Source: an uncultured Desulfobacterales bacterium | GTDB taxonomy: Bacteria > Desulfobacterota > Desulfobacteria > Desulfobacterales > CAZRLQ01 | Direction of reading: 5' to 3' | DNA length: 28,267 nt | Assembly: GCA_964600725.1 (NCBI GenBank) | Contig: CAZRLQ010000001.1 | Span: forward strand, 1 to 28,267 | In this document: piece after piece, positions 161 through 22,241 of the stretch | Layout: every line of letters begins with the position of its first letter | Position numbering within the stretch: the stretch's first letter is position 1 | Notes under the pieces: generated by a model | Told to the model about the DNA's origin: nothing | Seen by the model: the letters and a program-made list of their open reading frames with translations, nothing else | The model's database searches: none | Program-made: the position numbers and the translations under genes

Positions 161-2254
161 TCACCTAGCGCGCTGCCGATCCGCGTCAGATACCGGCTGC
201 AGCACTAAAGCGGTACGTGTGGGGAGATAGAGGCTTAAGAAATGTAAATGTCTGCTGCTTTTATCCTGGGAATCGCTGGCGAGTGCTTCATGATATTGAT
301 CGGAAATCAGCCTTCCGTGTCCCCCATACTCTTTTGCATCACTGTTAAAAATCATCCGATATTTTCCTGACGGCACTTCAAACCGATAGTCCGGATAAGA
401 AGATGTGGGATGGAAATTGAATACAAACAGAAGCCCTGCCCGTTTAAATGCGATAATCTTATCCTTGTGGTGTTCATACATTAGATGTAATTTGCGATGT
501 GTTAAAAGCTGAAAATCCATAACCAGATCGATCATACTGCGGTCAAATTGCGCAAGAAAATGAAATTTCAGATCCGGATCATCAACCAGATGCCACTGAC
601 GGCGTGCATAATGATACGACCAGTTATTCCCCTCTCTGGGAAAATCGATCCAGTCCGGATGTCCGAATTCATTACCCATAAAGTTCAGGTAACCGCTATC
701 CGCTGTTGTAAGTGTAATAAACCGGATCATCTTGTGCAGAGCCATTGCTCTGTCAATGATGATATTATCATCAGTGCACTTCATATGGCCGTAAATTGCT
801 GCACCGGCAAGACGGAAAAATAAAGACTGATCTCCGACAAGGGCTTGATCGTGCGATTCAGCATAACTGATGCTCTTTTCCTCTGTTCTCCTGTTGGTCA
901 GTTCAAACCACAAGTTTCCCATGGGCCAGCTTTCGTCGGTCATTTCCTTAATTAAACGGATCCAGTAATCGGAAATTCCCATTGCAAACCGGTAATCAAA
1001 ACCGACTCCACCCCTGGAGAGGGGAACGGCCAGACCCGGCATGCCGCTTATATCCTCTGCAATGGTAACGGCATCAGGCCGCAACTCGTGGATAACCTTA
1101 TTTGCAAGAGCCAGATATGTAATCGCATCTTCATCCACATCGCCTCCAAAATAATCGTCATACGAAGTAAAAGCCTTTTCAAGACCATGGTGATGATAAA
1201 GCATGCTGGTGACCCCGTCAAAACGGAACCCGTCAATATGGTATGCATCAAGCCAGAAACGGCAGTTTGAAAGAAGAAAATGAAGAACCTGGTATTTGCC
1301 GTAATCAAAACAGCGTGAGTCCCAGGCTGTATGAAAACCCCGCTCTCCTTCATGGAAATATTGGTGCAGTGTGCCGTCGAAACGGCTTAAACCTTCCACT
1401 TCATTTCTTACTGCATGGGAATGAACAATATCCATAATGACCATAAGCCCGGCTCCATGGGCAGTGTCTATAAGCTCTTTCAGTTCCTCAGGTGTTCCGA
1501 AGCGGGATGATGCGGCAAAAAAATTAGATACATGATAGCCAAAGGATCCATAGTAAGGATGCTCTGGAATCGCCATCAGTTGAAGCGCATTGTAACCGGC
1601 TGCAGCAATCCTGGGGATTATATTTTCGGTAAATTCACGATAAGAGCCGACTCTTCCCTCTTTCTGCGCCATACCTACGTGGACTTCATATATGAAGAGG
1701 GGGCCTGATGGACGGATAAAAGCATCATGTCGCCATTGATAGGGAATCAAAGGCCGCCAGATTTGGGCATTAAATATCAGACTTACAGGATCTTGAACCA
1801 CACGCCTTGCATATGCCGGTATACGGTCACCCTTTCCGCCCGGCCAATGGATGCTGAGTCGGTACAGATCTTTATGCTTTAAGCTCTCGGCAGGCAGACG
1901 GATCTCCCATATTCCTTCATTATTTATACGGCTTAAGGCAAATTCTTCTCTTTCCAGCCAACCGGTTAAATCTCCCACCAGATAAATTGCCGCAGCATTC
2001 GGAGCCCATTCTCGAAAAATCCATTGATTATCATGGAAATGCAAACCAAAATACTCATGGCCTGAGGCAAATTCAGTCAAACTCATTCTCCCTTGAGTCA
2101 GTCTGCTTTCCATTTCCCGGATGCGAGATTTCCTGCTTTTCAGCGCTTTTTCATAAGGGCGCAAAAAAAGATCGCATTCCAGAAGATATTGAACCGGATC
2201 AACGGAACTGTTTTGGGAGGATATGTCAAAATATGTTGACGGCCTGTCACTCAT
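161..2254 (-). CDS. glgB: 1,4-alpha-glucan branching enzyme, GH13_8 (eukaryote/Bacteroidetes-type) subfamily
   Basis: 697-aa ORF. Motifs FREWAPNA, FFAASSRFGTPEELK, GFRFDGVTSMLY (nucleophile region), AEDISG, YAESHDQALVGD and EFGHPDWIDFPREGNNWSY are typical of GH13_8. The start is 2 nt after the glgA stop. Confidence 0.95.
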   Translation of the reverse strand: MSDRPSTYFDISSQNSSVDPVQYLLECDLFLRPYEKALKSRKSRIREMESRLTQGRMSLTEFASGHEYFGLHFHDNQWIFREWAPNAAAIYLVGDLTGWLEREEFALSRINNEGIWEIRLPAESLKHKDLYRLSIHWPGGKGDRIPAYARRVVQDPVSLIFNAQIWRPLIPYQWRHDAFIRPSGPLFIYEVHVGMAQKEGRVGSYREFTENIIPRIAAAGYNALQLMAIPEHPYYGSFGYHVSNFFAASSRFGTPEELKELIDTAHGAGLMVIMDIVHSHAVRNEVEGLSRFDGTLHQYFHEGERGFHTAWDSRCFDYGKYQVLHFLLSNCRFWLDAYHIDGFRFDGVTSMLYHHHGLEKAFTSYDDYFGGDVDEDAITYLALANKVIHELRPDAVTIAEDISGMPGLAVPLSRGGVGFDYRFAMGISDYWIRLIKEMTDESWPMGNLWFELTNRRTEEKSISYAESHDQALVGDQSLFFRLAGAAIYGHMKCTDDNIIIDRAMALHKMIRFITLTTADSGYLNFMGNEFGHPDWIDFPREGNNWSYHYARRQWHLVDDPDLKFHFLAQFDRSMIDLVMDFQLLTHRKLHLMYEHHKDKIIAFKRAGLLFVFNFHPTSSYPDYRFEVPSGKYRMIFNSDAKEYGGHGRLISDQYHEALASDSQDKSSRHLHFLSLYLPTRTALVLQPVSDADRQRAR

Positions 2255-2256
2255 AA

Positions 2257-3768
2257 TCAGGTAATAAGGGGTCGCCGCAGCATCTTTTCGTAAAGATCGA
2301 TATACTTTCGTGCTGTGACAAAATGATTAAAGGTTGCAAGGCTCTGGTTCATGACCCGCTCGATTTGACGGTTCTTTAATTCTGCAGGAAGATTATAAAA
2401 ATTTATAGACTGGTCAATAGCCCAAAACAGACCCTGGGAATCAAAGGTTTCAAATAGAAAACCGTTTCCAGAGTCATTTTCGATATCCATATTAACAATC
2501 GTATCATGAATTCCCCCGGTATCATGGGCCACGGGAAGCGACCCATAAATGCAGCCTACCATCTGTGGAAGACCGCATGGTTCAAAGAGGGAAGGCATCA
2601 ATACAAAATCGGATGCAGCATAGGCCTGACGCGCCAGATTCTCATCAAAATCACAGATGGCTACCCTGTCGCTTAGTTGGTGAAAATTTACTATTCTTTT
2701 AAAATGTTCCTGGAATTCACCATTAGCAACAAAGACCACCTCCAGATTCTGCTTCCAGTACTTTGATACAGCCAGATAGAGAATTTCCGCCAACAGACGG
2801 GATCCCTTTTGAATCGTATCCAGTCTGGAAGGCCAGAAAAAGAGCGGAGCAAGGCTGTCCTGAATCAGTCCAAGCCTCTTCTGAAGAGATTTTTTGTTTT
2901 CCAGCTTGCCCCGGACATGGCTTTCCGAATTGTACCTGCAAGCCAGGGCGATATCTGTGGCTGGATTAAAAGAAGGCTCAGGTGCATTTAAAATTCCCGC
3001 AATACATCCGGCATTCCATTTATTGATTATTTCCTGTCTCAAGGGCCGCTGCACAAAATCGTGACGTCCCTGGACAACTTCCATAAGAAAAGTCGGGCTC
3101 ACCGTATTGACAAAATGGGCGGCAAAAACTCCGCTTGCCAGAAGATCTACCGGATTATACTCACGGGCACTTTCATACTCATAAGCTGCATTTTCATAAT
3201 AGAGATGATGCCAGAAATATGCAGCATCTATGCCTCTGTCTTCGATATGGGAAAGAAGAACCTTCATGGTATGAATGTTATGGATCGTAAAAAGACATGG
3301 AATCCCCATTTCTCTCGACATGGCCGGAATAAGACCTGTCATCCAGTCATTGCAATGGATAAGATCCGGTCTGACAGCAGGAATAATATTGTTAATCACC
3401 TCTCTTTGAAAAGCAATGGCAATATTTATATTTTCCCAGCTATAATTTGAGTAAACATGATCCAGATAAAAGAAAGCCCTGTCTTCAGCAAGATGTATTC
3501 TGTCATCCGGCATCTTGCTCCAGATAGTCCTTCGTTCCTTTTCTAAAACGCGCGGCAGCCTGGTATTAAATATACCCCGATAGTCTGGAATAGCCACATG
3601 AACATCTGCGCCTTCTTTGAAAAGAGAGCTTATCAAAGAGGCCGATACATCGGCAAGTCCACCAGCCTTGGCGCTCAGGTAGTTGGCAATGTTTCCCATA
3701 CCGTTGGGAAGATAAGTAACTTCCGGTGTTACAATAAGAACACGGGGGTTCGTTGATGGTTTTGTCAT
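2257..3768 (-). CDS. glgA: Glycogen synthase, GT5 family
   Basis: 503-aa ORF with KAGGLADV (KxGGL), IHCNDWMTG, RLDTIQKG and MPSLFEPCGLPQM motifs. Confidence 0.93.
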   Translation of the reverse strand: MTKPSTNPRVLIVTPEVTYLPNGMGNIANYLSAKAGGLADVSASLISSLFKEGADVHVAIPDYRGIFNTRLPRVLEKERRTIWSKMPDDRIHLAEDRAFFYLDHVYSNYSWENINIAIAFQREVINNIIPAVRPDLIHCNDWMTGLIPAMSREMGIPCLFTIHNIHTMKVLLSHIEDRGIDAAYFWHHLYYENAAYEYESAREYNPVDLLASGVFAAHFVNTVSPTFLMEVVQGRHDFVQRPLRQEIINKWNAGCIAGILNAPEPSFNPATDIALACRYNSESHVRGKLENKKSLQKRLGLIQDSLAPLFFWPSRLDTIQKGSRLLAEILYLAVSKYWKQNLEVVFVANGEFQEHFKRIVNFHQLSDRVAICDFDENLARQAYAASDFVLMPSLFEPCGLPQMVGCIYGSLPVAHDTGGIHDTIVNMDIENDSGNGFLFETFDSQGLFWAIDQSINFYNLPAELKNRQIERVMNQSLATFNHFVTARKYIDLYEKMLRRPLIT

Positions 3769-3803
3769 GGTATGTTTTTATATGAATCATGGTATGTTTT
3801 TAT
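3765..3803. repeat. 17-bp direct repeat (period 22) duplicating the glgA start context
   Basis: tcatggtatgtttttat occurs exactly at 3765-3781 and 3787-3803. Confidence 0.9.
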
Positions 3804-3805
3804 TT

Positions 3806-3873
3806 CTCGTTCCCGAGCTCCAGCGCGGGAATGCATACCATATGGGTTCCCATGCAAAAAGCATGGGAACCAG
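3806..3873. repeat. Inverted doublet of REP-like palindromes (GTTCCC...GGGAA type)
   Basis: Unit 1 (3806-3834) is ctcgttcccgagctccagcgcgggaatgc. Unit 2 (3844-3873) contains the perfect 11-bp stem ggttcccatgc-aaaaa-gcatgggaacc. The two units are inverted, diverged copies of each other. Confidence 0.75.
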
Positions 3874-4006
3874 GCGAAAAGCGCTGCCTCATTTTTATGC
3901 TTTGTAGTGCCCATCATGGCATGGTGGTTCGTGCGACGTCCTTCATTTATCGGTTTACACTTTGGAAGTCAGACCGAAAGCAAAACTGAAAGTTTTCAAA
4001 CGAACC

Positions 4007-6568
4007 CTAAGCCCATGTGATAAGTCCGGGAGTATTTTTTATCCATTCGTCACCCTTGGGTGTCACTCTGGCGGTTAAACCGTAACGGCCAGAACCGCGG
4101 CAGGTCAGTGAGCAGCCATAAAGATATTTGCCATCTCCTCGATCTTCCTTTACATTCATCGTTATTAGATTGCTGCTATCCATGGTTTCCGTGAATTTCA
4201 GATGGCCGTGGTAAAGTTCTACATCCACATCATCCGGCAGTAAATCTCCTAAATGAACAAGTGACGTAACGGCAAAGCTTTCCCCCACACGAAACGGACC
4301 GGTCTTATCCCTTGCCGGAGTCTCTATCCGAATATTGTTCCAGAGAGAGCGAAGCCGCTTGTGCTGCAAACTCAGACTCTTTGCTCTTTCGGCATTATTT
4401 TCAAGCAGGATCTTTGACTGTTTTGCCGCTGGAAGATAAAACTGTTTTACATATTCACTGGTCATCTCATGACTGCAAAAATTCAGCATTACCGTTTTCA
4501 TTGATTCCTTCATCATTTTCAGCCACTGATCCGGTAAACCGCCATTTTTTCTATCATAAAAGCAAGGTATTACTTCATTTTCCAAAATATTATACAGAGC
4601 CTGACTATCAGCAGCATCCTGAAGTCCTGGGTCAGCAAACTCATCCCCCTTTCCGATCTGCCATCCGTTTTTTCCGGAATACGCCTCATACCACCATCCA
4701 TCAGGGATGCTTACATTCAGCACGCCATTTACAGCCGCTTTCATACCGGAAGTTCCACACGCCTCAAAGGGTCGTCTCGGGGTATTGAGCCACACATCGA
4801 CTCCCCTTACAAGAGACTGAGCAAGATGTATTTCATAATCTTCAAGAAAAATAATCCGGTGGCGCGCCTGTGGCTTGCGGACAAAGGTAATCAGCCGCTT
4901 AATCAGCTCCTTTCCTTCATTATCTTTGGGATGAGCCTTTCCGGCAAATATAAACTGGACAGGATATTTTTGAGAAGAGATGATTGATTCCAGACGATCC
5001 TGATCCATCAGCAAAAGATAAGCCCGCTTGTACGCGGTAAAGCGGCGGGCAAAACCGATAGTCAATACATCCTGGTCCAGTACGGATTCAGCTTCCTCCA
5101 TCATTGTTTTAGGCGCATTACGACGGCTGTACTGGCTCATCATCACCCTTCGACAGACATTTACAAGACGGGAACGGCTCATCTCATGGGCACGCCAAAG
5201 CTCTTCGTCGTAAATATCGTCAATCCTTTTGATCGAATCCGGGTTCCATGGATGAAGATTCCACTCGGGACCGAGATAACGCTCAAAAAGCATTGAAATC
5301 TCGTCAGAAACCCAGGTGGGAATATGTATCCCGTTGGTAATATGGGAAATAGGAATCTCTTCTTCCGGACGATCAGGCCAAATGCTAGACCACATCCGCC
5401 TTGCCACTTTTCCGTGCAGTTTACTGACCCCGTTGCAGTGCTGAGCCATTCTCAGTCCAAAAACAAACATGGAAAACTTTCCACCCCTGTCCGAACCAGC
5501 CGGTTGTCCCCACGACAAAATCTCATCTTCCTTGGCACCGACCTTCTTCTCCAGCCTTCTTAAAAACGGCCGGATAAGATCAGCCGGATATTCATCATGA
5601 CCAGCGGCTACAGGTGTATGAGTTGTAAAAACAGTCGTTCGCGGAGCAATCTCCAAGGCTGTTTCAAGATCAACATTATAATCCGAAATGGTCTGAACAA
5701 GCTTTTCCAATGCGGCAAAGGCAGCATGACCTTCATTTATATGGCATACCGAAGGTGTAATCTCCAGAGCGGCAAGAGCACGCATTCCGCCAATCCCCAA
5801 AAGCAGTTCCTGTGAAAGACGTATTTTGGGATCACCCGCATACAGTCTGGAAGTAATCTCCCTGACTTCAGGCGGATTCTCCCGCAGATTTGTATCCAGC
5901 AGGTAAAGAGAAGTACGGCCGACCATAATTTTCAAAACATTAGCATGAATTTCACCATCTATTCCTTCAACAGAAACAGAGACATCCCTTCCCGAGGAAT
6001 CCTTAGCTCTTTCCACAGGAAGGTTGTAAAGATCAATCTCCGGATTCTCCTCCTGCTGCCATCCATCAGAGTCAAGAAACTGGTGAAAATAGCCTTTCCA
6101 GTAGAAAAGCCCGACTCCGGTCAAAGGAATCGCCAGGTCGGAAGCGGCTTTTAGATGATCACCGGCTAATATGCCAAGCCCTCCGGCAAACAGAGGAAGG
6201 CACTCATGGACCCCGAACTCCATGGAGAAATAGGCAACACCGCCCTGTTGTCCATATAGAGGATAAGACTGTTCAGCCGGTGTACAGACAAGCTCTATAA
6301 AACGTTCTTTAATCCGCTCTTGATCAGACAAAAACCCGTTGTCTCTTGCCAGCGCTTCAAGACGGCTTTGAGGAATTCTTGCCAAAAAAACAATGGGATT
6401 TCGTCCGCAATCATCCCAAATTCTGGGATCAATGCGGCGGAAAAGTTCCGTAGCATCAACCTGCCAGCTCCACCAGAGATTTCTGGATAAAACTTCAAGA
6501 AAGGAGAGAGGCTCCGGAATATTCGGAAATACCTGAAATATCTGCAATCGATTCATTTTCTCGGCCAT
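4007..6568 (-). CDS. glgP: Alpha-glucan (glycogen) phosphorylase, GT35
   Basis: 853-aa ORF with LSRNLWWSW, YFSMEFG, AGGLGILAGD, NEGHAAF, GFARRFTAYKR and the PLP-lysine motif EACGTSGMK. The start could alternatively be Met5. Confidence 0.96.
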   Translation of the reverse strand: MAEKMNRLQIFQVFPNIPEPLSFLEVLSRNLWWSWQVDATELFRRIDPRIWDDCGRNPIVFLARIPQSRLEALARDNGFLSDQERIKERFIELVCTPAEQSYPLYGQQGGVAYFSMEFGVHECLPLFAGGLGILAGDHLKAASDLAIPLTGVGLFYWKGYFHQFLDSDGWQQEENPEIDLYNLPVERAKDSSGRDVSVSVEGIDGEIHANVLKIMVGRTSLYLLDTNLRENPPEVREITSRLYAGDPKIRLSQELLLGIGGMRALAALEITPSVCHINEGHAAFAALEKLVQTISDYNVDLETALEIAPRTTVFTTHTPVAAGHDEYPADLIRPFLRRLEKKVGAKEDEILSWGQPAGSDRGGKFSMFVFGLRMAQHCNGVSKLHGKVARRMWSSIWPDRPEEEIPISHITNGIHIPTWVSDEISMLFERYLGPEWNLHPWNPDSIKRIDDIYDEELWRAHEMSRSRLVNVCRRVMMSQYSRRNAPKTMMEEAESVLDQDVLTIGFARRFTAYKRAYLLLMDQDRLESIISSQKYPVQFIFAGKAHPKDNEGKELIKRLITFVRKPQARHRIIFLEDYEIHLAQSLVRGVDVWLNTPRRPFEACGTSGMKAAVNGVLNVSIPDGWWYEAYSGKNGWQIGKGDEFADPGLQDAADSQALYNILENEVIPCFYDRKNGGLPDQWLKMMKESMKTVMLNFCSHEMTSEYVKQFYLPAAKQSKILLENNAERAKSLSLQHKRLRSLWNNIRIETPARDKTGPFRVGESFAVTSLVHLGDLLPDDVDVELYHGHLKFTETMDSSNLITMNVKEDRGDGKYLYGCSLTCRGSGRYGLTARVTPKGDEWIKNTPGLITWA

Positions 6569-6579
6569 CCTTCAATGGT

Positions 6580-6888
6580 TCAAACAATCACAACTGAATT
6601 TTCACAACTGCCGTAAATGCTGGGCAGATATTTATCGGCATCCCAGTCATTTTCCCAGAATGTTTCATCTATGAAATAACGAAACTGATATTCCCTGTTT
6701 GCTTCAAGATCGATTGTAACTGTAAATGTTCCATCCTTTAGTTCTTTCATGGGAGTTGCACAGGTATCCCAGTTGTTGAATTCACCAGCAATATGAACTT
6801 TTCTGGCGGATTCAGCCGCCGCCTTTGGAAGTCTGAAAGTAACCTTGCAAACAGGTCTGGTCTTAAGATATCTTTTTTTAATACTCAT
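6580..6888 (-). CDS. Stand-alone CBM48 / AMPK-beta-like glycogen-binding (isoamylase early set) protein
   Basis: 102 aa counted from the ATG at 6888, which has GAGGA upstream (the ORF track extends to a GTG at 6930). KVTF...VHIAGEFNNWD...PM...GTFTVTIDL...YQFRYFID..WEND matches the CBM48/E-set pattern. Confidence 0.85.
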   Translation of the reverse strand: MSIKKRYLKTRPVCKVTFRLPKAAAESARKVHIAGEFNNWDTCATPMKELKDGTFTVTIDLEANREYQFRYFIDETFWENDWDADKYLPSIYGSCENSVVIV

Positions 6889-7047
6889 AATATCCTCGAC
6901 TCTTTTTAGAAACCCTGAATCCGTGAGCACCGCCCTGCAGCTCCGAATGCAAAAAAGAACCTGCCGGCTTAAAGCCGCCTATGACCGGCCAGTCTCCGGA
7001 TAGACGGAGTGCGGAACACATGGCCTGTCTTTTTTGTAAACATTCAC

Positions 7048-7187
7048 GAGTTGCATTTATGAGAATTTTCGTTCGAGATCAAGGCATGCGAAAAAAAATA
7101 ACCGGAGGCATATAGTTGATATTCATAAGGATTATTTTTTTCGCATAACACAGAGGTCGGGCGAAAAGGCCATAAATCAACAGACTC
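7048..7187. mobile_element. 140-bp long-hairpin MITE-like repeat
   Basis: Nested inverted arms: atttatg/cataaat, ttttcg/cgaaaa, atgcgaaaaaaaataa/ttatttttttcgcat, with GAG...CTC ends. The flanks attcac/atttac may be a degenerate 6-bp TSD. The core is homologous to 27748-27892 in the opposite orientation. Confidence 0.7.
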
Positions 7188-7215
7188 ATTTACGCCATAC
7201 GGGGTTGTTCTTAAA

Positions 7216-7328
7216 GATGAACGTCAACATCGAATGTGAATGTCGCTTCGCTCTTTCTTTTTTAATTAAATCGAAACGCCGAAGGCGTACCATATTCAAC
7301 GTTGGATGTTCAATGTTGAGCGTTCGTT
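7216..7328. repeat. Inverted heptamer-array palindromic element
   Basis: The right arm ttcaacg-ttggatg-ttcaatg-ttgagcg-ttcg (period 7) is complementary to the left arm gaacgtcaacatcgaatgtgaat. There is an internal hairpin acgcc-gaa-ggcgt at 7276-7288. Confidence 0.65.
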
Positions 7329-7446
7329 TTTTTAGAGAAAAAATCCACGGCAGAGCCATCTATCTCTGACCTTGCCCAGATGGCCATGTTTTCAATACTG
7401 AATAAACAAACAAAGGGCTATCCAATTTGTAATTCGTAATTCCTGT

Positions 7447-10400
7447 TCAGATAGAAAAGACCTGCTTCCATACCCTCAGCAGTTCGCTTATCCCCCAGGC
7501 TTGTGCATCACATCCCCGCTGAATGTGTGGAAAATCTCCATCCAGTATTTCAGGAATCTGACCGGCGCACCCCTGAGATAAAAGCCGCCGGCTGCTCCCA
7601 AGCCATGACAAAGCTGTATCTTTTCCTCCCTCTCCATAAACCTTGACCCATGCCTCGCAAAAGGCTGGAAAAAGCCATGTCCATGCAGTACCATTGTGAT
7701 AGGCTGGTTTACGCTCTGTATCCTCATCCCCTTTATATCTTCCCTGATAAGGCCGGTTCGGATCGACAAGAATCTTATCATGATAAGCGATTTCAAGGGG
7801 ACGGCGAACAGGTCTGTCGGCCAGACTCCGAATGGCTCCAGGCACCAGCAATTCTTCACAGGCAGTAACAATATTCCGGCAGACTGCTGTGTCGCGGACA
7901 GCTCCCATAGTAACGGCAAAGAGCTGGTTCGGTCTTAAGGCATCATCCTGCTCAGCCTGCCCGGCAGGCACCCCTGAAGAAGCAGAGAGACAGTCGGCCA
8001 GATAACCCTCTTTTCTTAAAATAAAGAGATCTAAAATAGAGGCTTGAACCTGCTTGTAGATCTCTTTCCAGCCCCCCTCTTTTCCAAGCGGGTCTATCCT
8101 GTTCAAAAGAGCTAATGCAGCAAACCAGAGGGCCTGAATTTCGATCGGGTAGCCTTCCCTGGGCGTACATGCAGGATAATTGGTGTCCATCCAGGTAAAA
8201 TGAGCCGGGCTGAAAATCAGACCTGACTGAGGATCCATCCTTATGCCGTTGGGCGTTCCCTCAATCATGAATTTGCCGATAGAAAAAATAATTTCACGTA
8301 TGCTGCGGGTACCACATTTTGAATCTAAAAAATTTTCATTTCCAGCAGCCTGAATCAAATCAGAGCAGGCTGTACAAAACCAGAGAGGAGCATCGGAAGT
8401 ATCCCTGTTTGCGGCATCTTTGCCGCAGATCATATTAGGTATTGTTCCATTTTTTTCAAATCTCCCAAACTGCTGTAAAATTTCCATGGAGTCTTTTATT
8501 TTTCCCGCAGCAACCAATCCACGGACAAAAATCAATGAATCACGCCCCCAGTCAAGAAACCATGGATATCCTGCGATTACGCTCTTTAATTCGCCTCGTT
8601 TTACAATAAACCGATCGAGCGCCCTGCATAGGGCTTCATCCATTTTCAACCCGGATCCGCCGTCAATTGCAAAAGGCCTGGTTTCCTGTGGTAAAGCCGC
8701 TGGCGATAAAGATGCCTGATCTTTCAAGCCTGAGATAGAGGCCAAAACCTCTTCGGATTCTCCCCCTTTCAGCATAGAATAAAAATAACCGGGACTAAAC
8801 AGGTCAGAATCCGGATCAAGACCACGATCCGACTCCACAGGTCTATATACCATATAGTGCCATTCCGGTTCCAGTACAAAATCCCCCTTATCAATCTTAA
8901 TATGAAGTTCGCGATCCTGGTGAGGCGTAAAGGAGAAACCTTTTCTATCCATTGCTATCAACGATGGAAAAATATTTTCCGCCCCAAGATATGCTTTGGT
9001 GGTCTGGTGAAAATTTCGATCTTCAATGTCGGGCCGAAGGATAAGCTTTACATCTTTTGAATCATCTAACTTTTTTGTTTTCTCTTTGGCCGGATGCCGG
9101 AAAAAAAGTATCTTTACGGCGTTTTCTCCATCTAACATCTGAACTTTTACGGTAAGGACAATATGTTCTCCCTGGCCGACAGGGATATGAAATCGCCAGG
9201 ATGACGCAAGATTGTAATCAAAGCTGAACTTATTCAAACAATCAAAAGATATTTCCTGCGAATATCCTTGAAACACAACCCAGCCCCGGCACCTGGCAAA
9301 CATGATCCAGCGGTCTTCCGGATATGTTTGGCTGAGGTTTGCGGCAAGGAGCGCATCGTAACGGCTCTTGAGTTCCCCCCAGAAACTTTGGGCGCGAAGC
9401 ATTCCCCCGCGGCCGTTTGTATCCAGAATAACAAGTGGATTTTGCATCAAATCCGTCCGGCTGAAAATCCTTTTTACCTTGACATCTTTTGCATTGGACA
9501 AAAAAAGAAGAGGTGCCTCAATATGTCTGCCTTTTTCCGAAGTATAGACCGTCAGTTTCAAACTGCAAGAACGATCCATTGCAGATGGCGGCAAGGGTGA
9601 AAAAAGAGTAAAAAATTTTCCATCTGCCTTAAGCAGGCTTCTTTCACAAGCGATGACCTGTCTCTTTTTCTCAATCCTGGCATGAAATGGATTGTCGCAG
9701 CAAACAAACAGGAAATGTCCGGGCGGCACCATTGTCTCCCGCTTCTCATCACGGGGCCATCTCCATGTAACGGCTCTGGACTCCATGCTGAAGTGATTAA
9801 GGCTGCGGCAATAATCGACCGGATCTTCCGATAAAAGCTTCGCAGCTTGATCCAGGTCAAATTGTCCCAGATCACAAACTCCTCTGTAAAAGCAGAGCAC
9901 TTCCATGGCCTTGGCGCGCAAACGCTTTCTTTCCGCATACTCGGGCAAGCCGAATCTTTTATTTTCAGCATAACTGAAAAGTTTCAGATCGTCTCTATCA
10001 GTGGAAATACAAAGAACCTGGCCGGGAGACAACAAAAGGCTGTTTTGTCCCTTAAATTTATCAACCGTGATCTTTGCATTGGAAAGAAGGTCTATAAAAA
10101 GATGCCCGTCTATTAAATGCGGATCCCATGACCCAAGGGTCTGATTGAAATCATCAAGATTTACCAGGATCAAAAGTTTTTTGCCGGAAGGAAGATGGTG
10201 ACGCAGCAGAGCAATGTAATTACCCTGATTCGTCTGTATCATTTTCAGATCTGTTTCATCATAAAAAACAGGATGAAACTTTAGTATGCTGTTCAGCCGG
10301 CGGATGAAAGACACCTGATTGCACGCAGCTCCCCAGTTAAGTGATGGGGAGTCATGGACATCTATTTTTTCTGTGGCAAACCATTCTACTCCATTGGCAA

Positions 10401-11742
10401 AACCAAATGCCCCGCTTTGAGAAGATAAAGCGCAAAGAGCGGTTCGCATACCTGCATAAAGATTGGAACGAGAAGCCAGCCGGTTATTGTCGTGGGTTTC
10501 TGCAAAATGAACCATAAGCCCGATACTTTTAGAAAAATGATCGGTACCTGGAAGGTACTTTTCAATTTGACGACGGTCATAATTTTGAAACAATTCAGAA
10601 TATGCCCAGTTAAAACCGGCTCTGTTCAAGAGATCCCTGGTTACAGAAAGTTTTCCTCCGAGTCCTTCAAGAAAAAAGATGGTATCAGGGTACTTTTCCC
10701 TAACCTCGGCAATAATATATCTCCATGCAGGAACAGGAACCATATATCCCGCATCACATCGGAATCCGTCTACACCGCGGCGGCACCATGTCTGAAAAAC
10801 ACCTGCAATATATACCCACAAATCCTTACATGAATAATCAAGACTCGTCAGATCTTCCCAGCGAACTCCCCATGCGCCTGGAACCTCAATACGTCCGTCC
10901 GGATTTCTTATCAGCCATTCAGGATGGGTTTCATGGAGCCTGGCGCCCCAGCCGGTATGATTGACGGCAATATCTATGATTACTTTTGCACCCCGCGCAT
11001 GAATAGCATCTACCAATTCTATAAACTGTTCAAGCGGCGTCGCTTTTGGGTCAAATTCCGCCTGGGCAGGATCGACAGCGGTAAAACTGAGGGCGGCGAA
11101 GGGACTTCCAAAACGTCCCATTCGGGCAAAAGTGGTCGGTGTGGGATTAACGGGAAGCAGTTGAATAATGGTGCAGCCTAATTCTCCAATAATAAAATCA
11201 AGCTCTTTAATGAGATCACGAAAAGTTCCGGAAGGCGGGATTACCGCATAATCCTCTTGATCTAATTCTTTTATCCAGGACTTTTTCATCAGAGCGTATT
11301 TCTCACCGCTTTTGTTCGGACCAAACTGCCGCACAAAGGCATTGTAAATAATATTTGCACAACAGCTCTCGGCCGGTTCCACGTTAATAACGATATTTGG
11401 ACCTTCTGGCCATTTCGGCTTGTCCTCTCCTTTTTTTAAAAAGAAAGCCTTGGCTTCAAAATGGCCGACTTCACAAAGAGGAAGGATAACTTTAAAATTA
11501 AAATCATCAGCCGGCTCCATTGGAATGTCAAACCAGTCCAGCCCAAGAGGCGGTTCATTGTAAAGAACATTTTTTATTATTTCTGCGCGGGAAATTTTGG
11601 CCCGTCCGATATTGGTGCGAAGCCAGGCACTTCCCTTCTCCTTATAGGAAAGCGATAGAATAAACGTTTCGCTGTCACCCACAAATCTAAGAATATATGT
11701 TCCGGGAGGAGGATCCTGCTTAAGCCGGCCTGAAGTATCCAT
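7447..11742 (-). CDS. Putative bifunctional glycogen debranching enzyme: GH13 domain + GDE_N + GH133 amylo-alpha-1,6-glucosidase
   Basis: 1431-aa ORF. GH13 regions I-IV are DIAVNH, GFRCDAG, FLEGL and ETHDN. The GDE_N-like stretch is DTNGRGG...SRYDALL. GH133 motifs are AGYPWFLDWGRD, DAPLWF, TWMD, PREGYPIEIQALW, LRPNQ, YHNGTAWTW, IPEILDG and CDAQAW. Confidence 0.88.
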   Translation of the reverse strand: MDTSGRLKQDPPPGTYILRFVGDSETFILSLSYKEKGSAWLRTNIGRAKISRAEIIKNVLYNEPPLGLDWFDIPMEPADDFNFKVILPLCEVGHFEAKAFFLKKGEDKPKWPEGPNIVINVEPAESCCANIIYNAFVRQFGPNKSGEKYALMKKSWIKELDQEDYAVIPPSGTFRDLIKELDFIIGELGCTIIQLLPVNPTPTTFARMGRFGSPFAALSFTAVDPAQAEFDPKATPLEQFIELVDAIHARGAKVIIDIAVNHTGWGARLHETHPEWLIRNPDGRIEVPGAWGVRWEDLTSLDYSCKDLWVYIAGVFQTWCRRGVDGFRCDAGYMVPVPAWRYIIAEVREKYPDTIFFLEGLGGKLSVTRDLLNRAGFNWAYSELFQNYDRRQIEKYLPGTDHFSKSIGLMVHFAETHDNNRLASRSNLYAGMRTALCALSSQSGAFGFANGVEWFATEKIDVHDSPSLNWGAACNQVSFIRRLNSILKFHPVFYDETDLKMIQTNQGNYIALLRHHLPSGKKLLILVNLDDFNQTLGSWDPHLIDGHLFIDLLSNAKITVDKFKGQNSLLLSPGQVLCISTDRDDLKLFSYAENKRFGLPEYAERKRLRAKAMEVLCFYRGVCDLGQFDLDQAAKLLSEDPVDYCRSLNHFSMESRAVTWRWPRDEKRETMVPPGHFLFVCCDNPFHARIEKKRQVIACERSLLKADGKFFTLFSPLPPSAMDRSCSLKLTVYTSEKGRHIEAPLLFLSNAKDVKVKRIFSRTDLMQNPLVILDTNGRGGMLRAQSFWGELKSRYDALLAANLSQTYPEDRWIMFARCRGWVVFQGYSQEISFDCLNKFSFDYNLASSWRFHIPVGQGEHIVLTVKVQMLDGENAVKILFFRHPAKEKTKKLDDSKDVKLILRPDIEDRNFHQTTKAYLGAENIFPSLIAMDRKGFSFTPHQDRELHIKIDKGDFVLEPEWHYMVYRPVESDRGLDPDSDLFSPGYFYSMLKGGESEEVLASISGLKDQASLSPAALPQETRPFAIDGGSGLKMDEALCRALDRFIVKRGELKSVIAGYPWFLDWGRDSLIFVRGLVAAGKIKDSMEILQQFGRFEKNGTIPNMICGKDAANRDTSDAPLWFCTACSDLIQAAGNENFLDSKCGTRSIREIIFSIGKFMIEGTPNGIRMDPQSGLIFSPAHFTWMDTNYPACTPREGYPIEIQALWFAALALLNRIDPLGKEGGWKEIYKQVQASILDLFILRKEGYLADCLSASSGVPAGQAEQDDALRPNQLFAVTMGAVRDTAVCRNIVTACEELLVPGAIRSLADRPVRRPLEIAYHDKILVDPNRPYQGRYKGDEDTERKPAYHNGTAWTWLFPAFCEAWVKVYGEGGKDTALSWLGSSRRLLSQGCAGQIPEILDGDFPHIQRGCDAQAWGISELLRVWKQVFSI

Positions 11743-11822: not shown

Positions 11823-12269
11823 TCAAGCAACGACCATGTCGGTATCTTCTCTTTTAACTCTTTTTGTCTTTAATTTCGGCATATTTTCATTCATTGTTTC
11901 AGAAGGAAACCGATCATATGCTTTAAGAGCCTGTTCGATCTTATGTTTTAGTTCCCTTATGTCGATATTTCTCACAATGCTATAATAACTGCCTGCATAT
12001 TGTGTGTCATATTTAAAGCTAAGAAAGTCTGTACACAAAATTACCGGGATACCACAGCAAGCATCTTCGACAATTTCAAAAAAATCAGGGCCCTGATTCT
12101 TTGACAACCCAATATCCATCACGATAATATCCGGTCTGTATTTTACTATCAACTCCTTGATAGTAAAACAATCGTCGCTTGCAACAACCTTGTATCCCTC
12201 ACCGGTGAACTCGTCTATATAAAGATTTCTGATAGATCTCTTTTCATACAGTACAAGGATCTTTTTCAT
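11823..12269 (-). CDS. Single-domain response regulator, atypical receiver
   Basis: 148 aa counted from the ATG at 12269, which has AGGGGG upstream (the ORF track starts at 12332). Receiver pattern: KKILVL...EGYKV...PDIIVMD52...PVILCT80. Confidence 0.8.
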   Translation of the reverse strand: MKKILVLYEKRSIRNLYIDEFTGEGYKVVASDDCFTIKELIVKYRPDIIVMDIGLSKNQGPDFFEIVEDACCGIPVILCTDFLSFKYDTQYAGSYYSIVRNIDIRELKHKIEQALKAYDRFPSETMNENMPKLKTKRVKREDTDMVVA

Positions 12270-12480
12270 ATCAGCCCCCTTTTGCCCAATTTCTGCGACA
12301 GGCTCAAAATACACAAAGTATATTCCTGCCACATTATCAATAATAAAATTTTATTCAATGATATTCAGAATATGTTTTAATTGTAAATAAGGGAGGCAAT
12401 CTATTTTAATGAGCAATTCTCCCTGAAAACGGGATTTTTCCCCATACAGCAAAAGCCGGGCTTAGGATGATTTCAAAATT

Positions 12481-12858
12481 CTAATAATGCTCATTTGTTC
12501 TGGTGATCCCGATGAGAACCCCTTTTTTATTAAACTTGGCGGTTTTGATTACACGTCTATAACTATCTCTTCCATAATAAAACGGAATAAAAGCTTTCCC
12601 TGTGATATGACTCCGGTTAAAGGTTAAGATTTCTTCTCCTTTTTCATTAATTGATACCCCGTTTGGCTTTCCCCATTTTGCAATAACTTCTTCTTTTTTT
12701 GTTTTTCCCATTACAAATTCAGATTCAGGCAATACCCTTTCACTTTCACTCAGAGTATTTTGCTTTGTTTGATCCTTTTTAGGTTGAGCGGTATGACAAC
12801 CCGCAACAATAAATGAAAAAAAAATCAATAAAAACGAAAGACACTTAAAAATCCTCAT
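12481..12858 (-). CDS. Small lipoprotein, possible SmpA/OmlA (BamE)-like domain
   Basis: Signal peptide with lipobox IVAG-C. GKTKKEEVIAKWGKP resembles the BamE G(M)T..EV...LG.P pattern. AAGGAG lies upstream. Confidence 0.7.
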   Translation of the reverse strand: MRIFKCLSFLLIFFSFIVAGCHTAQPKKDQTKQNTLSESERVLPESEFVMGKTKKEEVIAKWGKPNGVSINEKGEEILTFNRSHITGKAFIPFYYGRDSYRRVIKTAKFNKKGVLIGITRTNEHY

Positions 12859-12912
12859 AATTTTTCTCCTTTGTCTAAAAAAAGGGATTTGTTCAAAAAG
12901 TTCGGATAACTT

Positions 12913-15909: not shown

Positions 15910-15939
15910 AATAATTTATAATCCTTGCCTTGGAGCAGC

Positions 15940-16039
15940 GTAATTTCTCAAAAATTAGGATAATGATAGGAAAATCCCCCCAGTCCCCCTTTTTCAAAGG
16001 GGAAAGCACATAATGTGCCTGAACTTTTTGAGAAGTTGC
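15940..16039. mobile_element. 100-bp MITE, copy A (GTAA-type termini)
   Basis: TIRs gtaatttctcaaaaa / tttttgagaagttgc match at 13/15. Flanks ggagcagc / ggaacagc match at 7/8. A 25-bp core is identical to copy B. Confidence 0.85.
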
Positions 16040-16054
16040 GGAACAGCCGCGCAG

Positions 16055-16083
16055 ATCAAAAATTTTTGTATTTTTTGGGCATT
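16055..16083 (+). repeat. 29-bp repeat, inverted partner of 17241-17269
   Basis: atcaaaaatttttgtattttttgggcatt matches the reverse complement of 17241-17269 at 27/29. Confidence 0.9.
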
Positions 16084-16095
16084 TTATGGTTGGCG

Positions 16096-16117
16096 AAGTT
16101 ATTTCGTCCCCATTTCT
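16096..16117 (+). repeat. 22-bp repeat, direct partner of 17392-17413
   Basis: aagttatttcgtccccatttct vs aagttatttcgtccccgtttct, 21/22 identical. Confidence 0.9.
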
Positions 16118-17193
16118 TAGTTTGATTGATTGAAAAACAGACGGGTAATATCATTATAAAATACGACTATCATAAGCAATATCAGTAAAAATATTCCAGC
16201 CTGCTGGGCTATCTCACGCACCTTTGTATTAATAGGTCGTCTTGTCACGGCCTCTATGAAAAAGAAGAGTATATGACCGCCGTCTAAAACCGGTATGGGG
16301 AGAATATTTAAAATAGCGAGATTAATGCTGAGCAGAGCAATAAAAAACGCCAGATTGGCTGCCCCCTCTCTGGCCTGTTGCCCCGCAAGCTCTGCAATCA
16401 TAATCGGCCCGCCAAGTGTTTTCGTAGAAATAGTGCCCTGTATAATCTTTACAATACTTACAACAGTCAGTTTGGTGATGCTGTATGTCTGGATAATGCT
16501 TTCTGAAAATGCCTGAACCGGATTCAGCTCCTTTATGAAATAATCACCCGATGCCTTAATTCCTATAAGACTTCGTTTTTTATCCTCCCCGAAAATATCT
16601 TTTACTATTTGCATCCTTGGTTTAATTTTTATTTCAAGGAGAGACTCTCCACGAACCACAGAAAATGCAATATTTCTTTCTTTACTTGAGGAAATAATTT
16701 CAGACATCTCATTCCAGCTTACAATCTCAATGCCGTCAATTGCCGCAATAGTATCATCTTTTTTAAGCCCCGCGATTTGAGCCGGGCTTCCTTTTTCAAC
16801 CTCTCCAATAACCGGTTTCAATATAAAAACACCTGAAAACTGAAAAAAAAGATAAAATATAATCAGAGCAAGGATAAGGTTGAAAAAAGGACCGGCTGCA
16901 ACGATCAAAATTCGTTGAAATACATTCTTGTGTGTAAAAGAAATCGGTATATCCGCAGGATCGATTTCCGCATCCGGTTCTTCACCAACCATTTTGACAA
17001 ACCCGCCAAGTGGTACTGCTGAAATACAATAATCTGTAATTCCTATCTTTTTACCGAAAAGCCTGGGACCGAATCCAAGTGAGAATTTAAGGACCCCGAC
17101 ACCTAACATTCTGGCAGTCAGAAAATGCCCCAGTTCATGGAAAAAGATAAGTACGCCCAAAACAATAACAAATGCAAAAATATTAGTCGTCAT
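16117..17193 (-). CDS. rseP: RIP metalloprotease RseP (M50 family, one PDZ domain)
   Basis: 358 aa with HELGH, GGFVKM, AAGPFFN, PDZ (SPAQIAGLKKDD) and NILPIPVLDGG. Confidence 0.96.
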   Translation of the reverse strand: MTTNIFAFVIVLGVLIFFHELGHFLTARMLGVGVLKFSLGFGPRLFGKKIGITDYCISAVPLGGFVKMVGEEPDAEIDPADIPISFTHKNVFQRILIVAAGPFFNLILALIIFYLFFQFSGVFILKPVIGEVEKGSPAQIAGLKKDDTIAAIDGIEIVSWNEMSEIISSSKERNIAFSVVRGESLLEIKIKPRMQIVKDIFGEDKKRSLIGIKASGDYFIKELNPVQAFSESIIQTYSITKLTVVSIVKIIQGTISTKTLGGPIMIAELAGQQAREGAANLAFFIALLSINLAILNILPIPVLDGGHILFFFIEAVTRRPINTKVREIAQQAGIFLLILLMIVVFYNDITRLFFNQSN

Positions 17194-17240
17194 AATAAAA
17201 CTTTGTTCGGCCTTTATGCTTAAGTTTCGCTATTTTTTTT

Positions 17241-17269
17241 AATGTCCAAAAAATACAAAAAATTTTGAT
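17241..17269 (-). repeat. 29-bp repeat, inverted partner of 16055-16083
   Basis: aatgtccaaaaaatacaaaaaattttgat; its reverse complement matches 16055-16083 at 27/29. Confidence 0.9.
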
Positions 17270-17273
17270 GCTC

Positions 17274-17343
17274 GTAGAGGCAACTCCCTGTGGCTGCCCA
17301 GCATTGTGCAATCAATCGGACAGGCACAAGGGCCTGCCCCTGC
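17274..17343. repeat. GTAG-type REP inverted doublet (REPIN-like)
   Basis: gtagaggcaactccctgtggctgccc (17274-17299) and the reverse complement of 17318-17343 (gcaggggcaggcccttgtgcctgtcc) are diverged copies of one G(T/C)AG-led palindromic unit. Confidence 0.75.
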
Positions 17344-17391
17344 TATTTTGTGCCAATATACATCACAGCTTCAGGTGATGCATACTTGGTT

Positions 17392-17413
17392 AAGTTATTT
17401 CGTCCCCGTTTCT
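17392..17413 (+). repeat. 22-bp repeat, direct partner of 16096-16117
   Basis: 21/22 identity to 16096-16117. Confidence 0.9.
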
Positions 17414-17628
17414 GGGTATAGTCTAATGGAATTGAGCGCCAGCGAAATTCAAGTCACGGTTCATGCCGCGCTTATCCGGTCATGATCGGTACCGCTGCTA
17501 AAAACGTGGTACGTCAAGATCATCATTCTTAGTTCAAGCAGCACAGAACGCTATTTAGTCTATCCAGTCCGACGCATCTGCCTGAATTTTTTCCGATGGA
17601 TAACACAGCCGATTAAATAACCGGCATA

Positions 17629-18789: not shown

Positions 18790-18832
18790 GCTAAGTTTGA
18801 TATGGCCTGATATTTCTTTACCCGTAAGATTT

Positions 18833-22237: not shown

Positions 22238-22241
22238 AACA

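Follow-up and report, generated by a model that had tools for sequence, protein, structure and literature searches.

The window, a 28,267-nucleotide stretch of DNA from an uncultured Desulfobacterales bacterium, carries on its minus strand a single uninterrupted open reading frame (7447..11742; 1431 amino acids, ATG start) whose product bears two catalytic sites on one polypeptide, GH13 at the N-terminal and GH133 at the C-terminal side. The presence of this GH13 + GDE_N + GH133 fusion is confirmed, and it is far beyond chance in view of the Pfam E-values and the invariance of the motifs across its relatives. We favour, at a probability of roughly 0.55, a cytoplasmic glycogen-catabolic enzyme with two active sites, a bacterial assembly of two prokaryotic modules that is analogous to AGL/Gdb1 and of independent origin. 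GH13 and GH133 on one chain is the textbook arrangement of animals and fungi; here a sulfate-reducer-type bacterium encodes such a eukaryote-like two-site protein, seemingly of independent bacterial origin. No paper describing a bacterial GH13 + GDE_N + GH133 fusion was found in the literature searched, the searchable papers state that a GH13 + GH133 fusion does not occur in bacteria, and the databases know the protein by automatic names only.

From N- to C-terminus the layout is beta-sandwich, GH13 catalytic domain, domain C, linker, GDE_N and GDE_C (GH133), all positions given being on the minus strand. The N-terminal beta-sandwich (aa 1-135; 11338..11742) has no Pfam match and was modelled with a pLDDT above 90. 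It is probably the counterpart of the GlgE N-terminal domain, since the foldseek alignments to GlgE cover almost the whole N-terminal half. Reading of the N-terminal sequence revealed no signal-peptide-like hydrophobic stretch. The GH13 catalytic domain, a (beta/alpha)8 barrel whose domain B is short, occupies aa 171-495 (10258..11232); aa 172-335 matched Pfam Alpha-amylase (PF00128), scoring 31.6 bits (cutoff 22), or 37 bits when only the domain was searched. The all-beta domain C (aa 497-580; 10003..10254) was delimited by foldseek and the secondary structure of the model. The following region (aa 583-770; 9433..9996), a helical linker (583-648) and a small beta domain (657-747), has no Pfam match and is conserved among the relatives, W660, D665 and R668 being invariant in alignment A1. 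Directly ahead of GDE_C lies the prokaryote-specific GDE_N beta-sandwich (PF12439; aa 773-996; 8755..9426; E=1.5e-33). The (alpha/alpha)6 barrel of GDE_C/GH133 (PF06202; aa 1043-1423; 7474..8616) matched with E=2.4e-64; its score of 218-221 bits compares with a cutoff of 21, and the match spans profile positions 4-367 of 367. The two AlphaFold models are of moderate quality (mean pLDDT 77 and 72), with poor active-site loops. The original prediction of an intact GH13 motif set, joined through a GDE_N-like domain to a complete GH133 domain, is borne out by these matches and by the ORF translation, in which every GH13 motif lies where it had been placed, TNGRGG reads as quoted and all GH133 motifs are present.

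The GH13 site comprises region I DIAVNH (aa 257-262; 10957-10974) with D257 and H262, the domain-B cap D297, region II GFRCDAG (aa 326-332; 10747-10767) with R328, C329 and the nucleophile D330 (codon 10753-10755), region III FFLEG (FLEG, aa 357-360) with the acid/base E359 (codon 10666-10668), and region IV ETHDN (aa 415-419; 10486-10500) with H417 and D418 (codon 10489-10491). D330, E359 and D418 align with the catalytic residues of 4GKL. In an alignment of 53 cluster representatives and the fusion (54 sequences, overall identity down to 33%), D257, H262, D297, R328, D330, E359, T416, H417 and D418 are identical throughout (54/54), and C329, the cysteine preceding the nucleophile, is present in 48. 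H262 and D297 align with His103 and Asp135 of Thermotoga neapolitana AmyB, the named non-reducing-end binding site of that enzyme (PMC11239784). By its PF00128 score, aligned triad and GH13 fold matches, the fusion belongs to GH13.

Sequence comparison places the GH13 half nearest to the exo-acting maltogenic amylases (GH13_48), and fold comparison nearest to GlgE. Among PDB sequences the best match was 3DHU (E=1e-27 to 4e-34), with 4GKL at E=7e-18 to 4e-25 and GlgE far weaker at about 1e-13; in the comparison that gave the motif alignment, 3DHU scored E=4.5e-29 and 4GKL 1.4e-18. The top foldseek match of aa 1-770 was GlgE (about 720 columns, E=1e-25), and 4GKL was matched with a TM of 0.70-0.72. 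This half is not of the eukaryotic GH13_25 transferase type: no PDB sequence or fold match to the GDE transferase domain was obtained, whereas more than 60 other GH13 chains did match, and PF14701 (hDGE_amylase) gave only E=0.14. With the GH13_48 enzymes (T. neapolitana AmyB, 4GKL; L. plantarum, 3DHU), its best sequence matches, it shares a cysteine immediately ahead of the nucleophile (GFRCD) and a domain B that is short, both in the feature list of that subfamily (PMC11239784), as well as the His and Asp of the non-reducing-end binding site. Those amylases differ in having ~420-450 aa, domains A, B and C only and no attached GH133; their region IV reads NHD where the fusion has THD (T416-H-D in 54/54), and their region VII ends in GQ where the fusion has NGVEW, with V452 invariant. 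Because of NGVEW, T416-H-D and the five domains that the fusion has beyond the A+B+C architecture, the GH13 half was not filed as GH13_48; its sequence suggests a sister or divergent lineage. The nearest characterised relatives of this half are hydrolases and not transferases, which runs against the reading we favour. Both GH13_48 amylases and GlgE handle maltosyl units, unlike the maltotriosyl transfer of AGL.

In the C-terminal half, TNGRGG (aa 775-780; 9403-9420) belongs to GDE_N, and the GH133 motifs are WGRD (aa 1065-1068), TWMD (aa 1183-1186; D1186, codon 8185-8187), LRPNQ (aa 1269-1273), YHNG (aa 1348-1351), PEILDG (aa 1397-1402; E1398, codon 7549-7551) and QAW (aa 1414-1416). D1064, D1068, D1186 and E1398 are kept in 52-53 of the 54 sequences. 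The catalytic Asp and Glu of GH133 are D1241 and E1492 in cgGDE, and D1261 and E1502 in hsGDE (PMC12219210). In the alignment the motifs are colinear with cgGDE around D1241, and E1398 would, by motif order and invariance alone, be the equivalent of E1492. D1186 lies 7 residues ahead of TPREG (aligned to cgGDE T1257) and D1241 lies 16 ahead of T1257; equating the two therefore requires a difference in loop length to be assumed. Fold matches were 7VMA, cgGDE (7EIM/5D06) and hsGDE (8ZEQ). By plain phmmer the domain matched yeast and human GDE (E=4e-7), and 7VMA gave no match at E<=10. In architecture and fold the C-terminal 660 residues agree with the prokaryotic GDE_N-GDE_C proteins (TIGR01561 'gde_arch'; 7VMA; Sulfolobus GH133), which differ in being ~620-690 aa long and without a GH13 module; stand-alone proteobacterial and Bacteroidota members show 26-29% identity to this part. 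The archaeal-type TIGR01561 scored 148.4 bits, under its cutoff of 364.15; the eukaryotic-type TIGR01531, whose cutoff is 1399, aligned with no more than ~80 residues, all in the glucosidase domain, and reached 30 bits.

The fusion gene stands first in a conserved cluster, followed by genes for a small single-domain CBM48 protein (6580..6930; ~100-116 aa), an alpha-glucan phosphorylase (4007..6568; DUF3417 + Phosphorylase; TIGR02094, 806 bits) resembling the Thermococcales maltodextrin phosphorylase, a GlgA-type GT5 glycogen synthase (2257..3768; TIGR02095, 274 bits, under the cutoff of 328) and the branching enzyme GlgB (161..2254; CBM48 + GH13 + Alpha-amylase_C), all on the minus strand. Among 80 loci sampled for synteny (56 with at least 4 kb downstream), the fusion gene is followed immediately downstream by the phosphorylase gene in 65, GlgA is present in 52 and GlgB in 50; the small CBM48 protein, between the fusion and phosphorylase genes, recurs there in 20 or more related loci, and a UDP-glucose pyrophosphorylase gene occurs in 19. 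The assignment of the fusion to glycogen metabolism is supported by this conserved association with phosphorylase, GlgA and GlgB.

Relatives of full length are encoded by at least 343 species genomes, and every one of the 80 best is full length. Homologues that are full length and 59-69% identical number more than 120, and there are 202 clusters at E<=1e-30, of which the full-length ones measure ~1400 aa. The carriers are mostly Desulfobacterales or Syntrophales, with some Kiritimatiellia and Victivallaceae, and include Desulfoluna limicola and Desulfonema ishimotonii. Strong purifying selection on both catalytic sets is supported. An assembly chimera, which the original prediction had named as a possible refutation, has a negligible probability, as has a half that is pseudogenised or an inactive relic: the same ~1400-aa ORF recurs in those genomes, closed long-read chromosomes included (CP070694, CP070697 and OY761459), and its catalytic residues are near-invariant. 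Nothing favouring such an artefact was found apart from the altered or degenerate GH133 halves of 2 of the 53 representatives (P0177, and P0191 with D1186N), and the reading is effectively refuted.

In the favoured mechanism, the co-encoded phosphorylase would trim the outer chains, the GH13 site would then trim or move the remaining alpha-1,4 part of the branch stub, and the GH133 site would hydrolyse the alpha-1,6 bond that holds the remainder. Module 1 (aa 1-580), a GH13 of the maltosyl-unit clade (GH13_48, GlgE) with the full Asp-Glu-Asp triad, would act from non-reducing ends, removing or transferring maltosyl units from alpha-1,4 chains; its exo-maltosyl specificity is predicted from sequence. 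Module 2 (aa 773-1423) would be a prokaryotic-type GDE_N + GH133 alpha-1,6-glucosidase. The scheme presumes that the two sites cooperate, and it presumes how large a stub GH133 would take. From a four-residue phosphorylase-limit branch, a strictly maltosyl-acting GH13 would leave a stub that is maltosyl rather than glucosyl; a simple analogy with AGL therefore holds only if phosphorylase stops at another limit or GH133 takes longer stubs.

The likeness to eukaryotic AGL/Gdb1 (GH13_25 + GH133; 5D06, 8ZEQ) extends to a single chain of about 1430-1530 residues, an N-terminal GH13 and a C-terminal (alpha/alpha)6 GH133 with beta-sandwiches at the N-terminus and between, colinear glucosidase motifs (WGRD, WMD...TPR(D/E)G, YH(N/Q)G..W.W), a T-H-D in region IV and phosphorylase as a partner. 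Homology of the whole protein to AGL/Gdb1, as ancestor or by inter-domain transfer, could draw on the identical module order (N-terminal beta-sandwich, GH13, middle beta domain(s), GH133), on the reach of the GH133 domain to yeast GDE by phmmer and on the unusual T-H-D, common to cgGDE and the entire family (T416); cgGDE region IV, FMDCTHDN, truly resembles ETHDN. The shared THDN is an isolated motif and does not by itself indicate a subfamily relationship, and such homology is very improbable given the lack of specific GDE-transferase similarity in a half matched by so many other GH13 chains, and the PF14701 and TIGR01531 scores. On a profile of eukaryotic glucosidase-domain fragments, the only segment with eukaryotic sequence, stand-alone bacterial GDEs scored 53-65 bits and the fusion family a median of 32, being equally or less eukaryote-like; by sequence, the fusion GH133 appears no closer to eukaryotic GDE than are its stand-alone bacterial homologues. 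Each half is prokaryotic in type. The GH13 lineage is GH13_48/GlgE-like and not GH13_25, the GH133 carries the prokaryote-specific GDE_N, the domains hGDE_N, hDGE_amylase and hGDE_central were not detected, and the GH13 site is apparently capped at subsite -2 (maltosyl), as opposed to maltotriosyl transfer. The original interpretation is partly supported: the mirroring of AGL/Gdb1 holds for two sites on one chain and fails for the eukaryotic domains and for TIGR01531, and the bifunctional transferase/glucosidase that it named is a hypothesis. Candida glabrata GDE is a fold match for the GH133 half and not for the GH13 half. Convergence with AGL/Gdb1 and an independent bacterial origin are most likely, because the GH13 half is not GH13_25 and the GH133 half, which has GDE_N, stands no nearer to eukaryotic GDE than its stand-alone bacterial homologues do; the independent fusion preferred at the outset agrees with the TIGR01561 and TIGR01531 scores (148 vs 30 bits), PF14701 at E=0.14 and the missing GDE transferase match.

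A genuine GlgE (alpha-maltose-1-phosphate:glucan maltosyltransferase) as the GH13 half would make the fusion biosynthetic or remodelling. This reading is suggested by the names that JGI gives several members, 'starch synthase (maltosyl-transferring)' among them, and by GlgE (GH13_3; 3ZSS, 4U33, 5CIM), of the same maltosyl-unit clade, giving the best fold match over the whole length, with the N-terminal domain apparently included. We regard it as highly unlikely, for the fusion keeps the canonical histidines as in hydrolase-type GH13_48 (DIAVNH, FAETHDN) where GlgE has DFALQC and FFANTPD, the fusion sequence lies far nearer to 3DHU and 4GKL than to GlgE (1e-29 vs 2e-14), no feature suggests maltose-1-phosphate as donor, and the conserved cluster holds GlgA and, in 19 loci, UDP-glucose pyrophosphorylase, with no treS or maltokinase gene found. 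GlgE-type regions I and IV were ruled out by the alignment. Possible, if on balance doubtful, is a direct debrancher joined to an oligosaccharide processor: GH133 would cut off short branches in one piece, in the manner of GlgX or isoamylase, and GH13, closest to exo-maltogenic amylases acting on maltooligosaccharides and dextrins, would handle the released maltooligosaccharides, yielding maltose units by degradation or disproportionation or returning maltosyl to glycogen. Such an enzyme would replace MalQ/MalZ-type enzymes, with no obligatory order from transfer to glucose release. The fold match 7VMA from T. gammatolerans, active on maltodextrin and glycogen, is reported to release whole chains by direct debranching, with an optimum at DP 13-24 (PMC9142091). 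Function transfers poorly from 7VMA, however, because it has no detectable sequence similarity to the fusion GH133, which does match yeast and human GDE, and it is less obvious why selection would join an enzyme acting on soluble oligosaccharides to one that debranches a polymer, substrate channelling being one possibility.

The direct debranching reported for 7VMA, the sole biochemically described prokaryotic GDE_N-GDE_C enzyme, also counts against the cooperative two-site enzyme that we favour. By analogy, the fusion may share with the GH13_11 direct debranchers GlgX and TreX the removal of branches after phosphorylase and a gene in the glg cluster; these have one GH13 active site and an N-terminal CBM48, and lack GH133. 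TreX has been reported to be bifunctional.

The fusion gene (nucleotides 7447–11742, minus strand) is a single unbroken ORF specifying a protein of 1431 amino acids. It contains Alpha-amylase (GH13; aa 172–335), GDE_N (aa 773–996, E 1.5e-33) and GDE_C (GH133; aa 1043–1423, E 2.4e-64) Pfam domains. This confirms the original prediction that GH13 and GH133 are joined in one chain, and all of the motifs quoted there were found in the protein at their positions. AlphaFold models of the two halves had mean pLDDT values of 77 and 72 with confident cores; the underlying alignment was shallow (38 sequences, ~60% identity) and left several active-site loops at low confidence, so that the layout but not the subsites was taken from the models. 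Combined with the Pfam results, they give a beta-sandwich (aa 1–135), a GH13 barrel with a short domain B (aa 171–495), domain C (aa 497–580), a helical linker (aa 583–648), a small beta domain (aa 657–747), the GDE_N beta-sandwich (aa 773–996) and an (alpha/alpha)6 barrel (aa 1043–1423). Loose Pfam scans revealed no family in aa 1–170 or aa 561–775. Direct inspection of the N-terminus revealed no signal-peptide-like hydrophobic stretch, and the protein is therefore probably cytoplasmic.

Full-length homologs with the same Pfam architecture number more than 120 (59–69% identity). Using one genome per species, relatives were found to be encoded in at least 343 genomes; in all of the best 80 of these the gene is full length, and the closed chromosomes CP070694, CP070697 and OY761459 are among them, which excludes the possibility, raised in the original prediction, that the fusion is an assembly chimera. 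Nearly all of these 80 genomes belong to Desulfobacterales, Syntrophales, Desulfosarcinaceae or Desulfonema, with the addition of an Olavius symbiont. An exhaustive search with aa 1–770 returned 202 clusters (50% identity) at E<=1e-30, including full-length clusters of ~1400 aa with identities in the matched region down to ~38%; among the groups represented are Kiritimatiellia, Victivallaceae and, as a cultured species, Desulfoluna limicola (WP_236891459.1). An ortholog also occurs in Desulfonema ishimotonii. Representatives of 570–980 aa were considered as unfused versions, and most proved to be partial genes on short contigs. Two cluster representatives, P0122 (976 aa, 43-kb contig) and P0124 (970 aa, 146-kb contig), seem to be cut off after ~aa 970 in spite of their long contigs; members of this type may be split or frameshifted genes.

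Fifty-three full-length cluster representatives, 33–56% identical to the window protein, were aligned with it (n=54). Both catalytic sets had been described as intact, and this proved to hold across the family: the GH13 residues D257, H262, D297, R328, D330, E359, T416, H417 and D418 are the same in 54/54 sequences and the GH133 residues D1064, D1068, D1186 and E1398 are retained in 52–53 of the 54, a pattern indicating that both active sites are under selection. The exceptions, representatives P0177, with a degenerate C-terminal (GH133) half, and P0191 (D1186N), may be natural variants which have lost glucosidase activity. The catalytic residues of Thermotoga neapolitana AmyB (4GKL) correspond in the alignment to D330, E359 and D418, and H262 and D297 correspond to AmyB His103 and Asp135, which form the site binding the non-reducing chain end (PMC11239784). 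In the GH133 half, 'TPREGYPIEIQALW' aligns with 'TPRDGAAVEINGLL' of Candida glabrata GDE (yeast GDE; T1257), and 'YHNGTAWTW' with 'YHQGPEWVW'. With the yeast catalytic residues taken as given in PMC12219210, D1186 (TWMD) would correspond to D1241, provided that a nine-residue loop difference is allowed, and E1398 (PEILDG), judged by motif order and invariance, is the presumed counterpart of E1492.

By sequence, the GH13 half is closest to the Lactobacillus plantarum protein 3DHU (E 1e-27; 4e-34 with the family profile), followed by AmyB (E 7e-18; 4e-25 with the profile), both exo-acting maltogenic amylases of GH13_48, then by GlgE (~1e-13) and the T. maritima maltosyltransferase (5e-8). In fold comparisons with its AlphaFold model, the N-terminal half aligned with GlgE across ~720 columns (E 1e-25) and with AmyB at a TM of 0.70–0.72, and there is no eukaryotic GDE chain among the top 50 fold matches. 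Like GH13_48, the fusion protein has a Cys before the nucleophile (GFRCD), but it differs in region IV (THD as opposed to NHD), in region VII (NGVEW as opposed to ...GQ) and in architecture, and we treat its GH13 half as a putative sister lineage of GH13_48 and not as a member. An assignment to GlgE was rejected, as the canonical histidines of regions I and IV are kept where GlgE has DFALQC and FFANTPD. No PDB sequence or fold match to the eukaryotic GH13_25 transferase domain was found, PF14701 scoring just E 0.14. The region IV T-H-D (ETHDN, aa 415–419, nucleotides 10486–10500), present in all 54 family sequences, resembles yeast GDE (FMDCTHDN, D670) and differs from the N-H-D of GH13_48, which is nearest in sequence; this isolated similarity to yeast GDE could be convergence tied to transfer chemistry, or coincidence.

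The GH133 half is preceded by the prokaryote-specific GDE_N domain, scores 148 bits with TIGR01561 (archaeal-type) against 30 bits with TIGR01531 (eukaryotic), and shows 26–29% identity to stand-alone GDE_N-GDE_C proteins of Azospirillum, Burkholderia, Caballeronia, Persicobacter, Bacteroides, Prevotella and Vibrio. Comparison with eukaryotic GDEs was confined to one ~90-residue GH133 segment, using a profile of 52 eukaryotic fragments (exon-sized, 69–146 aa) collected with an 83-aa yeast fragment. Over this segment five of these stand-alone proteins scored 53–65 bits and the fusion family a median of 32 (maximum 60), and since the profile favors the stand-alone proteins, the GH133 domain of the fusion shows no special closeness to its eukaryotic counterpart. 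Considered jointly, the affinities of the two halves point away from eukaryotic GDE, and the best reading of the sequences is a fusion independent of, and convergent with, that of the eukaryotic indirect debranching enzyme (AGL/Gdb1). The independent origin favored in the original prediction thus holds, with GDE_N present and neither half specially close to eukaryotic GDE.

All genes around the fusion gene lie on the minus strand. Downstream are genes for a small single-domain CBM48 protein (6580–6930; ~100–116 aa, its start probably being the internal Met of MSIKKRYL), an alpha-glucan phosphorylase of the TIGR02094/Thermococcales type (4007–6568), GlgA (2257–3768) and GlgB (161–2254). Among 80 related loci, only 56 of which extend 4 kb or more downstream, the phosphorylase comes after the fusion gene in 65, GlgA in 52 and GlgB in 50. 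This conserved cluster makes a strong case for a role in intracellular glycogen metabolism, as had been proposed. The CBM48 ORF was detected at the equivalent position in at least 20 of the 80 loci, and its product could be a subunit that scaffolds the catabolic enzymes or targets them to glycogen. The GlgA homolog falls below the curated cutoff of TIGR02095, the ADP-glucose-type glycogen synthase (274 vs 328 bits), which makes its sugar-nucleotide donor uncertain. In 19 of the 64 loci with enough upstream DNA (L029:559–1962, L023, L031, L032, L059, L054, L060, L040 and 11 more), a UDPGP-family UTP-glucose-1-phosphate uridylyltransferase (PF01704, E 2e-127) of a type typical of eukaryotes is encoded upstream on the same strand, immediately adjoining the fusion gene in eight. 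It matched no NCBIfam model and the window has no copy; its presence suggests that part of the family is associated with UDP-glucose-based glycogen synthesis.

The analysis shows a single chain with two active sites, both conserved, encoded next to a phosphorylase gene in a glycogen cluster. The characterised members of the GH13 clade (AmyB, GlgE and T. maritima MTase) all work on maltosyl units, at the non-reducing end of the chain, and the capping Asp and His are kept, for which reason the GH13 site would probably remove or transfer maltosyl units, after which the GH133 site would hydrolyse the alpha-1,6 link of the leftover stub. The GH13 site may act by transfer, as in AGL, or by hydrolysis, as in AmyB. 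The original proposal of a bifunctional transferase/glucosidase is thus partly supported: the domain layout, the link to glycogen, the integrity of both sites and the independence of the fusion stand, whereas transfer by the GH13 site and a mechanism like that of AGL are hypothetical. The classic phosphorylase limit stub has four glucose residues, and removal of a maltosyl unit from it would leave a maltosyl and not a glucosyl residue. According to a 2024 review (PMC11046441), the T. litoralis phosphorylase requires a maltodextrin of four or more glucose residues, and the neighboring phosphorylase resembles the Thermococcales enzymes; by analogy, a similar limit might, speculatively, leave three residues, from which maltosyl removal would yield exactly one glucose.

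The main rival is that the GH133 half debranches directly and the GH13 half then processes the released oligosaccharides. The C-terminal half folds like beta-sandwich plus (alpha/alpha)6 enzymes, among them the archaeal amylo-alpha-1,6-glucosidase of T. gammatolerans (7VMA), a GDE_N-GDE_C enzyme, and the glucosidase domains of yeast and human GDE, and chain-releasing activity has been reported for the T. gammatolerans enzyme (PMC9142091). That enzyme is, however, too distant in sequence from the GH133 half for safe transfer of function: the GH133 domain (aa 1041–1431) matches 7VMA by fold (E 2e-10), yet phmmer found no similarity to it even at E<=10, although yeast and human GDE did match in sequence. 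GH133-like proteins of prokaryotes thus differ greatly among themselves, and the direct debranching reported for 7VMA may not be generalisable to others. In a more far-reaching reading, less likely than not (a probability of about 0.3), a large lineage of Desulfobacterota and PVC bacteria would have evolved its own glucose-releasing indirect debranching, using a single-chain enzyme that, unlike AGL, transfers maltosyl units. Such a pathway may be part of a glycogen gene set that is otherwise 'eukaryote-like', given that some loci add the eukaryote-type UDP-glucose pyrophosphorylase. A bolder version would have the fusion family or a relative donating the blueprint for eukaryotic GDE.

A 2025 human GDE structure paper (PMC12219210) states that conservation of the bifunctional enzyme does not extend to bacteria; Zmasek and Godzik (2014; PMC4236520) describe bacterial and archaeal homologs solely as GDE_N-GDE_C, and GH133 is not among the accessory domains of GH13_48 listed in the 2024 GH13_48/49 paper of Janecek (PMC11239784), in which GH133 fusions are not discussed. 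No description of a bacterial GH13 + GH133 fusion family was found in the literature searched, and databases hold the family under automatic names only. As the family is common among sulfate reducers and syntrophs of sediments and also occurs in PVC bacteria, the statement that the bifunctional enzyme does not occur in bacteria (PMC12219210, PMC4236520) is, taken literally, wrong. The fusion appears to be a bacterial debranching enzyme with two sites on a single chain, convergent with AGL and built from other GH13 and GH133 lineages, and it contradicts the published generalisation. Debranching type has served as a diagnostic rule in arguments on eukaryote and plastid origins, and a glucose-releasing indirect pathway, if true, would overturn the rule that indirect debranching is eukaryotic and direct debranching bacterial. 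Should the sites cooperate, the family would be a clear-cut example of a complex two-site enzyme arising by convergence, and a genetically tractable bacterial model (Desulfoluna, Desulfonema) for substrate passage between debranching-enzyme sites. Members are variously annotated as 'amylo-alpha-1,6-glucosidase', 'glycogen debranching enzyme N-terminal domain-containing protein' and 'alpha-amylase family glycosyl hydrolase'; the name 'starch synthase (maltosyl-transferring)', also in use, is probably wrong.

In some loci a GT4 glycosyltransferase gene lies between the UDPGP and fusion genes (L066:8648–9964, L069:8653–9945), and a GT4 gene also comes after the stand-alone GDE_N-GDE_C gene of Bacteroides finegoldii; GT4 genes within glycogen clusters have been flagged as unexplained (PMC11046441). 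Directly upstream of the fusion gene in the window is a gene for a stand-alone response-regulator receiver-domain protein of 169 aa with no output domain (11823–12332, minus strand), which adjoins the fusion gene in 0/80 related loci. A non-coding gap of 516 nt (6931–7446) separates the fusion stop codon from the CBM48 gene, the equivalent gap in many related loci being 20–100 nt; it holds no ORF of note, and neither it nor the rest of the window has an Rfam match. Weak terminator-like hairpins occur in it at 7276–7288 and 7347–7359 (minus strand). The remainder of the window consists of chromosomal housekeeping genes (purL, rseP, dxr, cdsA, uppS, frr, pyrH, tsf, rpsB, prmC, prfA and rho), and the G+C content of the glycogen cluster (nucleotides 1–11000; 0.44–0.48) is somewhat above that of the upstream housekeeping genes (12000–28267; 0.35–0.45).
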